From assembly GCF_030013205.1 (NCBI RefSeq), contig NZ_CP122648.1: 64,000 bases of DNA. One strand, given 5' to 3'. Shown here piece after piece: positions 60,001 to 64,000 of the stretch. Origin of the DNA: Escherichia coli. Its GTDB lineage: Bacteria > Pseudomonadota > Gammaproteobacteria > Enterobacterales > Enterobacteriaceae. The stretch's first letter is position 1. Each line of letters starts with the position of its first letter. A program made the position numbers.

Positions 60001-63000
60001 TACCGCATCAAGAACGTGGTCATCGCGTAAATAAGCGTGTGCAAGTACATAATCTCCAATGGCCTGGCTTTCACGTAAGCCACCACAGTGACCAATCATC
60101 AACCAGACATCCGGGCGCAGCACCGCCAGATGATCGCAGATGGTTTTAGCATTTGACGGTCCCACGCCAATATTCACCAGAGTAATACCCTGACCATCGG
60201 CGGTAATTAAATGCCATGCGGGCATCTGGTGTTTTTTCCATGCAAGGTCGGAAATGGCTTCTTCTGGCGCTTCGGTTTCGGCGGTGATCCAGTTCCCGCC
60301 AGCACAAGAAAGGGCAATGTAGGGACTATCAGGATCGAGGATCTGGCTGCATCCCCAACGAACGAATTCATCCACATAACGTGTGTAGTTGGTAAACAAG
60401 ACGAACGGCTGAAAATGTTCAACTGGCGTACCGGTATAATGGCGCAACCGCGCAAGGGAAAAATCGACGCGGCGCGCATCAAAATGCGATAGCGGGGAGA
60501 ATTCCGTTGGATGATAAATGCCGTCTGCAGTTTCATCGCCAATTTGCGCCAGTTCTGTTGTCGGGAAATAGCGAGTTAACCCAGCGCTCATTGAGCGATC
60601 AAGTGTCAATTCAGAGCCATCGATGACATAAGGATAAGGGATTTCATGCTGCGAGGGTTGCACCGAGATATGCGCACCATAATCCTGATACAGCAACGTA
60701 AGTTGTTCATTGAGATACGAACGAAAGAGAGTAGGGCGAGTAATCGTGGTGGTGTAGCTGCCTGCGTGGGTAAAACGACCAAATGCGCGCGTTTTGGGGG
60801 GATTGGTTGTGCTACCGTCCCAGGTTACGGTCAGTGATGGATAGACAAAAAGACCTTGTTTGCGGGCGTTTTCATCAGGTAATTCGCCACTTGTAATATA
60901 TTTGCCAATGGCGTTGCGTAAAGCGACTACAGATTGCTCATACAGCGCGTCGAGTTTATCCAGTGCCTGAGCTGGGGTCAGACCGGAGCCCTTATTATTC
61001 ATGTGTGTCTCCTGTTCCATACAATTACCGCACATCCGATAGTATGTCACAGGAATGTGAAACAAAAGTGTAAGGCGAAGATCGGATGATCTTCGCCAGG
61101 CTATTAAGCGCGTTGATTGTCTTTCATCAACAAAGCGGTCATTGCGGAAATCAGGCATCCAGCCAGCAAATAAATAGCGACGCTATGCCAGTTCCCGGCA
61201 AAGTAAGTGATGAGTGCAGCGGCAATAAAAGGTGTAAATCCACCGCCAACCACACTGGCAACCTGATAACCGACTCCAGCGCCACTATAGCGATAACTGG
61301 CACCAAACATTTCGGTAAACATCGGTTGTTGTACACACACCACCATATCATGCGCAATGTTTGCCAGCATGATGGAGAAGAAAACTATCCAGAAAATAGA
61401 TTGTGCTTCAAGCGCCATAAAGAAAGGAAATGCGCTCAACGTTCCGAATAACGCACCTGTGATATAAACCCTGCGGCGACCAAAACGATCGGCAAGCCAG
61501 GCAAAACAGGGAATTGTCAGGCAGCTTAATCCACCGACCAGCAAACCAATATTAAGGAAAAGTTCGCGCGGTAACCCCATATTCTGGGTTGAATAATTAA
61601 GTGCAAAGGCAGTAACAATGTACATCGTCAGCAACTCGCACAGTCGTAGTGCAATAATCTTCAGGAAAGCACCGGGATGTCGTAACAGAGCTTCGATAAC
61701 CGGGATGCGTTTTTTCGCGGCCGCTTGATTATGTTGCTGTTGTTCAAATTCCGCGGACTCCTCCATGCCATTGCGCACCCACAATGCTCCCAGTACCAGT
61801 ACGATGCTAAACAGGAAAGGAATGCGCCAGCCCCAGCTTAAAAACTGTTCGTCAGTCGTCATCATACTGATCAATGAAACCAGTCCGGTTGAAAGCAGTA
61901 AACCTACTCCGTAGCCAACTTGTACACCGCTACTGTAAAAGGCTTTTTTATTTTTCGGCGCACTTTCAACGGAAAGCAACGCTGCGCCTCCCCATTCGCC
62001 GCCGACGGCAAATCCCTGAATGGCACGCAGTGTCATCAGCAAAATAGGTGCCCACCACCCAATGGTCGAGAATGAAGGAAGAATACCAATCAAGGCTGTC
62101 GCGATGCCCATCATCCAGACGGTCAGCATTAACATGCGCTTACGTCCCAGTCGGTCGCCAAAGTGACCGAAAATGACACCGCCTAGGGTCGGAAAAGGAA
62201 GCCGACACCAAAGGTGGCAAATGCGGCGAGCGTTCCCATCGCCGGGCTTACTTGCGGGAAAAACTCGCGATTAAACACCAGTGCGGCGGTAATGCCATAG
62301 AGTAAAAAATCATACCAGTCGACGACGGCACCAGCGAAACTGCCTAACGCAGCTCGTCGGGCGCGACTTAACGAAAGCGTCCCTTCATCGGGACGAGTGG
62401 AGATGAGCGTGGAGTCCATAATGATCCTGTTTGTACTGTCTTTTTATAATTAGTATGGAAAAGGTAACTCACATTGCCGTCGATCTATAAACGAACCTTA
62501 TGAGACTACCTCGACAGAGCGCATCTGCAAATGATTTTATGGCTGATTAGCGGCAACATGAAAAATTCGATGGAAGATGAAAGCACGGGCGTTGCTGGTG
62601 TTGTTTAAGGATTAAGCAGAGCACCCACAGGTTCGAGATATGAAACATAAAAGTCCGCATATGTACAAAATAGCACCCTGATGAGTCTGATAGACTGCAT
62701 TGCATTATAACCAGTAGGGAGGCGAGGTTAGGTATGTTTTTAGCATCATTGTTGAGACGTATTGCATTTAGTTACTACGATTATAAAGCTAATAATTTCA
62801 ATATTGGAAAAACAGACTTTGTTGTCATCCATATTCCCGATCAAATTGGCGATGCTATGGCCATCTTTCCAGTTATTCGGGCGATTGAAATGCATAAAAT
62901 AAAGCATCTTTTAATTGTTACTTCGACTATTAATTTAGAAGTCTTTAATGCGCTCAAACTTGAACAGACTAAATTAACATTAGTTACAATGACTATGCAG

Positions 63001-64000
63001 GATCACGCAACATTAAAAGAAATAAAAAATTTAGCGAAGAACATAACACTGCAATACGGTACGCCGGATCTTTGTATAGAGGCGATGCGTAAAAAGAACC
63101 TGAAAACGATGATATTTATCAGTCAGTTGAAAGCAAAAACGAATTTTCAGGTTGTTGGTTTAACCATGAAGTGCTATTCCCCTTTGTGTAAGGACGCGTC
63201 CCGGATGGATCAGAGTCTCCGGGCTCCCGTACCCATGACATGGGCATTTATGATGCGTGAGGCGGGTTTTCCAGCAGTCAGGCCAATATATGAATTGCCA
63301 CTAAGTGAGGATGTACTCGATGAGGTGCGCGAGGAAATGCGATCGTTAGGAGCTTACATTGCGCTCAATTTAGAAGGTAGTGCACAGGAACGTACATTTT
63401 CATTATCGATAGCAGAAAATCTAATAGCAAAAATTCAAAGTGAAACAGATATGCCAATAGTGATCGTTCATGGACCAAAAGGGGAAGATAAAGCCAGGGT
63501 ATTAGTGGATTGTTATAATAATGTCTTCCGTTTATCCTTATCACCCTCGATTAAACGTTCGGCAGCAATCATAAAAGATGCTTATATCGCAATAACTCCT
63601 GACACCTCAATATTACATATGGCAAGTGCCTATAGGTAATGACTCCAACTTACTGATAGTGTTTTATGTTCAGATAATGCCCGATGACCTTGTCATGCAG
63701 CTCCACCGATTTTGAGAACGACAGTGACTTCCGTCCCAGCCTTGCCAGATGTTGTCTCAGATTCAGGTTATGCCGCTCAATGCGCTGAGTATAACGCTTG
63801 CTGATAACGTGCAGCTTTCCCTTCAGGCGTGATTCATACAGCGGCCAGCCATCCGTCATCCATACCACGACCTCAAAGGCCGACAGCAGGCTCAGAAGAC
63901 GCTCCAGTGTGGCCAGAGTGCGTTCACCGAAGACGTGCGCCACAACCGTCCTCCGCATCCTGTCATACGCGTAAAACAGCCAGCGCTGACGTGATTTAGC

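Follow-up and report, generated by a model that had tools for sequence, protein, structure and literature searches.

Near the 3′ end of the window, the whole 64,000-nucleotide stretch of Escherichia coli DNA analyzed here (contig NZ_CP122648.1 of assembly GCF_030013205.1), an open reading frame (ORF) runs into an IS1 element that extends to the last base of the window (Table 1). The gene order amn-shiA-yeeL is found in the window and in its sister genomes, and is followed by yeeJ. A preliminary description of this DNA had presented the ORF as a yeeL-like gene of glycosyltransferase family 9 (GT9), truncated by IS1 and supplied with a stop codon by the end of the element. The gene is indeed the orthologue of yeeL: as in K-12, its neighbors are shiA and yeeJ, it is convergent with the latter, and in its intact form it is 95.6% identical in DNA sequence to K-12 yeeL (b4497) over 1053 bp. 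In the E. coli strain CFSAN018748, yeeL is uninterrupted (1053 bp, 350 aa, WP_000477867.1), and window positions 62420 to 63634 match, at 100% identity, the shiA-yeeL spacer and yeeL nucleotides 1 to 901 of that strain. The match to this intact gene breaks off precisely at 63634/63635, the position at which the IS1 inverted repeat had been said to start. Codon 300 is TAT, codon 301 (AGG) consists of the yeeL base at 63634 followed by two IS1 bases, and codon 302 is the TAA stop, which lies within the IS1 terminal repeat. The G+C content of yeeL is 39%, as compared to 49.6% for the window.

Table 1. Features at the yeeL-IS1 junction, with positions in the window.
Feature	Coordinates	Strand	Remarks
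shiA-yeeL divergent intergenic region	62420..62733	.	100% identical to CFSAN018748; unaltered relative to intact-yeeL strains
Truncated yeeL ORF	62734..63639	+	301 aa: 300 native residues, junction Arg, IS1-supplied TAA
yeeL 5′ part	62734..63634	+	codons 1-300 and first base of codon 301, out of 350 codons
Target site GTGCCTATA, left copy, 9 bp	63626..63634	.	yeeL nt 893-901
IS1, first 366 of 768 bp	63635..64000	-	insB-proximal (right) end in window; transposase reads towards yeeL
IS1 terminal inverted repeat GGTAATGACTCCAACTTACTGAT	63635..63657	.	contains the stop codon of the truncated ORF (63637-63639)
insB C-terminal part	63650..63958	-	mechanical ORF from an internal ATG; real InsAB′ frame runs past 64000

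From 63635 the sequence reads GGTAATGACTCCAACTTACTGAT..., the terminal repeat of IS1, which occurs once in the window as compared to zero occurrences expected by chance; no second IS1 end is present in the window. The minus-strand ORF within the element matches the Pfam family DDE_Tnp_IS1 (PF03400, E = 4.5e-53) over profile positions 31 to 131 of 131. This match corresponds to the C-terminal end of InsB, which identifies the IS1 end at 63635 as the insB-proximal (right) one. The element continues beyond the window, as had been proposed: its 366 visible bases are the same as bases 1 to 366 of the complete 768-bp IS1 of sister genomes, which are 100% identical to the window wherever the two overlap. 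The complete copy contains insA and insB′ frames and is annotated as an IS1 family transposase (WP_236281370.1) with a programmed frameshift. Within their first 35 positions, its terminal inverted repeats (GGTAATGAC... and GGTGATGCT...) agree at 23. The window ends 366 bp into IS1 and includes the left target copy, while the 768-bp length, the frameshift, the second IS1 end, the second target copy (i.e., the 9-bp duplication) and the 3′ remnant of yeeL are read from the sister genomes. IS1 is a 768-bp element that has insA and insB′ joined by a programmed -1 frameshift, duplicates 9 bp of its target, prefers A+T-rich targets and generates adjacent deletions. The present case resembles classical IS1 inactivation in element length, 9-bp duplication, insA/insB′ programmed frameshift and a target of 39% G+C, with nothing unusual beyond the variant IS1 sequence, which is 93 to 94% identical to copies annotated as IS1A family.

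Assignment to GT9, also part of the preliminary description, rests on the intact orthologue, because the truncated ORF alone reaches no GT9 model. The intact protein scores 29.1 bits against PF01075 (GT9; cutoff 22) over residues 233 to 321, whereas the 300-residue fragment gives no match to this profile even at E ≤ 1. A weak match of the truncated ORF to NAD_binding_10 (17.7 bits versus a cutoff of 27.2) was rejected as a sub-cutoff, generic Rossmann-like resemblance. A direct sequence search of intact YeeL against the PDB returned nothing at E ≤ 1 and a 17-sequence profile yielded marginal WaaC matches (hmmsearch E 0.09), so YeeL was placed by fold search. The AlphaFold2 (AF2) model of the intact protein (pLDDT 86, pTM 0.84) has a GT-B fold of two Rossmann-like domains, and its best Foldseek matches in the PDB are 3TOV (a Veillonella GT9 protein), 1PSW (WaaF), and 2GT1, 2H1H and 6DFE (WaaC), with TM scores of 0.60 to 0.74 and E values of 5e-13 to 1e-10. 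An unrelated chain, 9grx_1, ranks fourth in the same search.

At the residue level, hhalign aligns YeeL 219-310 to WaaC 191-281 (E 2.3e-4), pairing P289-D290-T291-S292-I293-L294-H295 of YeeL with V260-D261-T262-G263-L264-S265-H266 of WaaC. The D261 region of WaaC corresponds to the sugar-nucleotide motif of the C-terminal domain (D-T-G/S-x-x-H), and D261 is known for its functional role in WaaC; D290, T291, S292 and H295 are invariant in the YeeL family. YeeL shares a predicted GT-B fold with WaaC, WaaF and 3TOV, and the DT(G/S)xxH motif and the segment preceding it with WaaC, but it is 11 to 15% identical to these proteins and is encoded outside the waa cluster. Against the heptosyltransferase equivalogs TIGR02193, TIGR02195 and TIGR02201, it scores 38.1, 18.7 and 16.9 bits versus cutoffs of 185.3, 134.6 and 170.2, respectively. 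By these scores, YeeL is no equivalog of WaaC, WaaF or WaaQ, and classifying it as a lipopolysaccharide heptosyltransferase is unwarranted. None of the literature titles returned concerned YeeL function; they were mainly on metabolic engineering or matched the author name “Yee L”. Heptosyltransferases are known to be paired with autotransporters, as in Aah/AIDA-I and TibC/TibA. By analogy, a role for YeeL as a dedicated glycosyltransferase for the neighboring adhesin YeeJ was considered, but it was dropped for want of support from conserved linkage: in Erwinia persicina, Rosenbergiella nectarea and Pseudocitrobacter, the YeeL homologues have no yeeJ-like neighbor. The sole recurring neighbor of these three homologues is an MFS transporter gene upstream.

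Full-length relatives of YeeL (E. coli, E. albertii, Pseudocitrobacter, Erwinia and Rosenbergiella) are 349 to 377 aa long rather than 300, in keeping with the claim that IS1 truncates the gene. None of 105 homologues naturally ends at residue 300, and the shorter entries among them are contig-end partials or other disruptions. Residues 301 to 350 hold 12 of 105 invariant columns (P303, A306, Y308, K312, T313, R314, W315, M318, E323, V327, G328 and E338). In the AF2 model, the same segment comprises strands 304-308 and 322-326 and helix 336-349. Most of the predicted nucleotide-binding positions, including D290-T291-S292 and H295, precede the break.

Identical copies (100%) of the 666-bp junction are present in 14 complete genomes: K_EC180, ETEC4067-4071, 4075, 4079, 6333, 6334, 1701 and 1748, and O139:H1 W13-16 and P15-25. 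The last 24 kb of the window (40000-64000) are 100% identical to the porcine isolates ETEC4070, ETEC4071 and ETEC4079. In K_EC180, ETEC4070 and ETEC4079, a 768-bp IS1 has GTGCCTATA on both sides and is followed by yeeL nucleotides 893 to 1053, so that both the rest of yeeL and the target-site duplication, which had been suggested to lie past position 64000, are found in genomes identical to the window. The preliminary description had the C-terminal part of the gene “displaced or lost”; in the sister genomes it is displaced, with the 152-bp remnant directly after IS1, and the suggestion of loss does not hold. In these three genomes, the yeeL pieces on either side of the IS1 family transposase are both annotated by PGAP as “glycosyltransferase family 9 protein, incomplete”. 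The yeeL::IS1 allele of RefSeq porcine E. coli does not differ from the window in the visible part, and the same junction already carries a pseudogene annotation in the sister genomes inspected.

The best explanation for this arrangement, and one that we hold with high confidence, is that a single IS1 insertion has made yeeL a pseudogene in this lineage of porcine E. coli. On this view, the element entered the 3′ part of the chromosomal gene by transposition between nucleotides 901 and 902 (codon 301 of 350) and duplicated the 9-bp target GTGCCTATA. The gene now ends with residue 300, an Arg encoded by the junction, and a TAA in the IS1 terminal repeat. Its last 152 bp (49 whole codons, the stop codon and two bases of codon 301) would lie 768 bp away on the far side of IS1, just past the window, with neither a promoter nor a start codon. 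Under simple insertion, a single 768-bp IS1 and then GTGCCTATAATACCCCCGTTG... would be expected past 64000, and the source genome probably continues there as the sister genomes do. No substitutions separate the window from its nearest intact relatives over 1,215 bp, and the insertion is therefore recent. IS1 has added a further pseudogene to those it is known to generate, and its target here is also inactive in the reference strain: K-12 yeeL is a recognized pseudogene with the same locus, orientation and 1053-bp length, but its defect is a nonsense mutation at codon 235 (CAA to TAA), where the window allele keeps CAA.

A more complex history, in which an IS1-mediated rearrangement of the source genome (adjacent deletion, inversion or tandem duplication) caused the 3′ end of yeeL to be lost, moved far away or doubled, is rather unlikely. 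Two of the three genomes that are 100% identical to the window over 24 kb, ETEC4070 and ETEC4071, carry the arrangement yeeL(1-901)-IS1-yeeL(893-992)-IS1-yeeL(893-1053), the extra sequence being a second tandem copy of IS1 and of 100 bp of yeeL. This form is consistent with replicative transposition of IS1 between sister chromosomes followed by resolution. IS1-associated loss is also seen in other lineages, as in 23CRST047, which is without yeeL nucleotides 229 to 564, and in G1/2, where yeeN follows the IS1. However, in all three of the sister genomes inspected, the 3′ remnant is still found immediately behind an IS1, together with the 9-bp duplication. This makes simple insertion the primary event and the tandem duplication a secondary change, limited to 2 of the 14 genomes. 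The 3′ end of yeeL, sought in case of inversion between IS1 copies, is absent elsewhere in the window. A single IS1 followed by GTGCCTATAATACCCCCG... would be a layout incompatible with rearrangement.

The truncated product is almost certainly an inactive or unstable fragment, because it loses two β-strands of the C-terminal Rossmann domain, the C-terminal helix and the 12 invariant residues. Continued production of a 301-residue protein with residual activity or a new role is highly improbable. In favor of such a protein, the insertion leaves the promoter region, the start codon and 300 of the 350 codons intact, and the truncated ORF retains both the N-terminal domain and, from the C-terminal domain, the DTS..H motif. 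Against this, the two missing strands belong to the core and the helix is the terminal helix of the GT-B fold, the lost invariant residues include the YxxYKTRWP block, and the product no longer matches PF01075. The adjoining genes are also decaying in this lineage (shiA is frameshifted, and yeeJ is truncated and frameshifted), and yeeL is dispensable, because K-12 has a nonsense allele. The remaining reading, which the preliminary description itself named as its refutation, is that IS1 inserted just downstream of a complete gene, so that a stop codon falling within the IS end would be of no consequence. It has as its sole hint the 346-aa forms of some E. coli (in strain AL.H8, an IS1 after nucleotide 1019 leaves a 346-aa ORF annotated as intact), and it is already refuted by the intact allele, which is identical in DNA and extends another 152 bp (∼50 codons) to a full 350 aa, by homologues of 349 to 377 aa with a strongly conserved tail in five other genera, and by the displaced yeeL tail that follows IS1 in the sister genomes.

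Single insertion of IS1 into yeeL has counterparts in other lineages. Several different variants of IS1 lie in or beside yeeL at no fewer than 10 distinct positions. In one orientation, junctions occur after nucleotides 865, 882, 895, 896, 901 and 913 and near 213; in the other, they occur after nucleotides 790, 792 and 1019, and there is a further junction at nucleotide 992. Of 5,426 complete genomes searched for a junction between the 3′ third of yeeL and an IS1 end, 39 have it in the window orientation and 145 in the opposite one. To these are added the K-12 nonsense allele and ∼1,600 S. sonnei records that stop at residue 297. A tentative proposal, which we consider doubtful, is that yeeL is repeatedly inactivated in E. 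coli and Shigella, perhaps under selection, and that the A+T-rich 3′ third of the gene is a regional hot spot for IS1. If selection rather than target preference were responsible, the putative glycan made by YeeL might be costly in some niches. The many independent IS1 hits in yeeL say more about IS1 target choice or the dispensability of the gene than about new biology. The junction between yeeL nucleotide 901 and IS1 can serve as a lineage marker, common to the 14 porcine ETEC and O139:H1 genomes.

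The gene at the end of the window is an orthologue of K-12 yeeL (b4497) truncated by IS1. Upstream of its reading frame lie shiA and amn, as in the K-12 gene order, and K-12 yeeL occupies the same place between shiA and the convergent yeeJ, with equal length and 95.6% DNA identity; the K-12 copy has been made a pseudogene by a stop at codon 235 (TAA in place of CAA). The intact gene of E. coli strain CFSAN018748 (1053 bp; 350 aa, WP_000477867.1, annotated “glycosyltransferase family 9 protein”) served as reference. Window 62420–63634 is 100% identical to its CFSAN018748 counterpart, and in pairwise alignment the identity holds through 63634, with none beyond. 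The IS1 terminal repeat (GGTAATGACTCCAACTTACTGAT...) starts at 63635 and occurs once in the window, where no occurrence is expected by chance. The preliminary description, in which the frame runs into IS1 at 63635 and takes its stop from the element, was correct to the base: codon 300 reads TAT (Tyr), codon 301 (A/GG) is split by the junction, and codon 302 is a TAA at 63637–63639, within IS1. A minus-strand ORF beyond the junction matches the C-terminal part of Pfam DDE_Tnp_IS1, indicating that IS1 enters the window insB-proximal end first and reads towards yeeL.

Full-length homologues do not end at the residue where the window copy breaks; they would be expected to do so had IS1 inserted downstream of an intact gene. 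The otherwise identical intact allele extends 152 bp past the break, and among 105 homologues found by database search the full-length ones (from E. coli, E. albertii, Pseudocitrobacter, Erwinia, and Rosenbergiella) are 349–377 aa long. In an alignment of 17 sequences, with identity down to 52%, residues 301–350 hold 12 of the 105 invariant columns (P303, A306, Y308, K312, T313, R314, W315, M318, E323, V327, G328, and E338). The window yeeL is thus truncated, with a conserved tail removed from its frame.

The remainder of the gene was found in sister genomes. All 24,001 bases of window 40000–64000 are 100% identical to ETEC4070, ETEC4071, and ETEC4079 (porcine ETEC, Belgium); K_EC180 (Korea) and other porcine ETEC and O139:H1 strains are near-identical over this range, and an identical 666-bp junction is present in 14 complete genomes. 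In K_EC180 and ETEC4079, IS1 is exactly 768 bp, has GTGCCTATA (yeeL nt 893–901) on either side, and is followed by yeeL nt 893–1053, with one substitution (nt 956) in K_EC180. The full copy contains the insA and insB' frames and, in the annotation, its transposase is intact, with a programmed frameshift. In these two genomes yeeL::IS1 has the textbook form of a simple insertion, 9 bp of target being duplicated. Both the yeeL remainder and the duplication, which the preliminary description had suggested seeking beyond 64000, were therefore recovered; its wording that the C-terminal part is “displaced or lost” holds for displaced and not for lost, as the 3' part follows IS1. Junction, truncation, and continuation in sister genomes otherwise bear out both its observation and its interpretation. 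ETEC4070 and ETEC4071, only two of the 14 genomes sharing the junction, carry yeeL(1–901)-IS1-yeeL(893–992)-IS1-yeeL(893–1053), in which IS1 and 100 bp of yeeL are present twice in tandem. The new joint between yeeL nt 992 and the IS1 end could have arisen by replicative transposition of IS1 between sister chromosomes followed by resolution; the tandem form is also consistent with an assembly artefact common to two closely related assemblies. The window stops within the first IS1, and single and tandem forms both fit it.

Intact YeeL passes the Pfam Glyco_transf_9 cutoff (29.1 bits; cutoff 22) and lies far under the cutoffs of the NCBIfam equivalog models of heptosyltransferases I, II, and III; judged from its sequence, it does not belong with the LPS core heptosyltransferase equivalogs. 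Sequence search of the PDB with intact YeeL gave no match, and the YeeL family profile matched WaaC only marginally. By hhalign, YeeL 219–310 aligned with WaaC 191–281 (E 2.3e-4), pairing D290-T291-S292...H295 with D261-T262-G263...H266. The best PDB matches of an AlphaFold2 model (pLDDT 86, pTM 0.84) were GT9 protein 3TOV, WaaF 1PSW, and WaaC 2GT1/2H1H/6DFE (TM 0.60–0.74, E 5e-13 to 1e-10). Together, the Pfam score, hhalign alignment, and model matches predict a divergent GT-B glycosyltransferase of the GT9 family. The break after Y300 has WaaC L271 as its counterpart in the hhalign alignment, and the lost segment comprises, in the model, strands 304–308 and 322–326 and the C-terminal helix 336–349, as well as the invariant YxxYKTRWP block of the 17-sequence alignment. 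The 300-aa fragment had no match at all to PF01075. The truncated product would be expected to be inactive or unstable. As yeeL is the last gene ahead of convergent yeeJ, the insertion should not exert polarity on any gene beyond it. yeeL::IS1 is a pseudogene of an ordinary kind, made by IS1 insertion, and public genomes already annotate it as such.

Searches with the 300 bp of yeeL that lead up to the junction, joined to an IS1 end, counting a genome when at least 80% of the query is covered at a single place, found yeeL-IS1 junctions in the window orientation in 39 of 5,426 genomes and in the opposite orientation in 145 of 5,426, a few IS1 copies lying just outside the gene. Other E. coli lineages (L005–L016) carry IS1 at different sites, which span nt ~213–1019 of yeeL, with one more 110 bp downstream of it, and cluster at nt 790–792 and 865–913. 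Many independent insertions are represented, with at least 10 distinct sites, both orientations, and several IS1 variants. Many more matches with the hit geometry of Ecol_448 are probably also at nt 790. The three genomes with IS1 at nt 895 look unrelated and share one exact site with different IS1 variants (97.0%, 94.8%, and 93.6% identity to the window IS1 in B771, 2018-18.25PC, and Ec1120, respectively). In Shigella sonnei, YeeL records are “partial”: P0042 and P0052 (1,596 and 1,984 member sequences) end at residue 297 (...ILHMA) or 258, the stop at 297 accounting for ∼1,600 records. Contigs that break at an IS typically leave such a stop, which suggests that yeeL of S. sonnei is likewise subject to IS-caused breaks; one of these is only a few bases away from the E. 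coli nt 895 site. IS1 prefers A+T-rich DNA, a preference that the low G+C of yeeL (39% versus 49.6% for the window) fits. The recurrence is explained most simply by the target preference of IS1, yeeL being dispensable; selection for yeeL loss is a possible alternative for the same pattern of insertions.

Features of the yeeL locus and IS1 sites in yeeL (L-numbers, stretches of other genomes in their own coordinates)
Feature	Location	Strand or orientation	Remark
Truncated yeeL ORF	window 62734..63639	+	301 aa
shiA	window 61104..62419	-	upstream of yeeL ORF
insB-end ORF of IS1	window 63650..63958	-	DDE_Tnp_IS1, C-terminal 101 positions, E=4.5e-53
Left copy of 9-bp target site	window 63626-63634		yeeL nt 893-901
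Tandem IS1 + 100 bp of yeeL (nt 893-992)	L004 (ETEC4070) 2693-4328		also ETEC4071
yeeJ pseudogene	L002 7491-12066; L004 4751-9254		beyond window
yeeL homologue neighbourhoods	L017 7636-10113; L018 7674-10050; L020 7479-10053
IS1 site	near nt 213	window	23CRST047; deletion up to nt 564
IS1 site	after nt 790	opposite	Ecol_448
IS1 site	after nt 792	opposite	LZYWN_4
IS1 site	after nt 865	window	GCU-H1
IS1 site	after nt 882	window	UID2404240038
IS1 site	after nt 895	window	B771, 2018-18.25PC, Ec1120
IS1 site	after nt 896	window	G1/2, with rearrangement
IS1 site	after nt 913	window	Tig228
IS1 site	after nt 1019	opposite	AL.H8
IS1 site	110 bp downstream of yeeL	window	TUM9812

Relative to CFSAN018748, the shikimate transporter gene shiA has lost 1 bp between 62186 and 62187 (plus-strand C absent in CCTAG-GGTCGG), a deletion that splits it into 343- and 78-aa ORFs, which PGAP annotates in sister genomes as a shortened shiA and a “hypothetical protein”. 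yeeJ, an inverse-autotransporter adhesin gene, is a pseudogene in sister genomes, frameshifted and missing its N-terminus. With shiA, yeeL, and yeeJ each broken, three adjacent genes are inactivated in the window's lineage, and the locus neighbourhood is decaying in this lineage. A role for YeeL as partner of the adjacent adhesin YeeJ is unsupported, there being no yeeJ-like neighbour in Pseudocitrobacter, Erwinia, or Rosenbergiella; the only recurring neighbour of the homologues in these genera is an upstream MFS transporter gene, and a transporter-glycosyltransferase pairing may be conserved. The yeeL homologue of Erwinia and Rosenbergiella lies ∼155 bp 3' of a same-strand MFS transporter gene; its divergent neighbour in E. 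coli and Pseudocitrobacter is the MFS transporter gene shiA. A literature search on yeeL turned up nothing about YeeL function. Elsewhere in the window, ∼47480–57750 is a small island after a tRNA-Asn gene, beside yeeO, where K-12 has asnW alone between yeeO and yeeN. According to the annotation of ETEC4070, which is identical here (L022 7483–17747), the island holds two frameshifted integrase genes, one for a tyrosine recombinase/integrase and the other a fragment, together with genes for an HTH protein, a TPR protein, and an RHS repeat core protein of 1330 aa.
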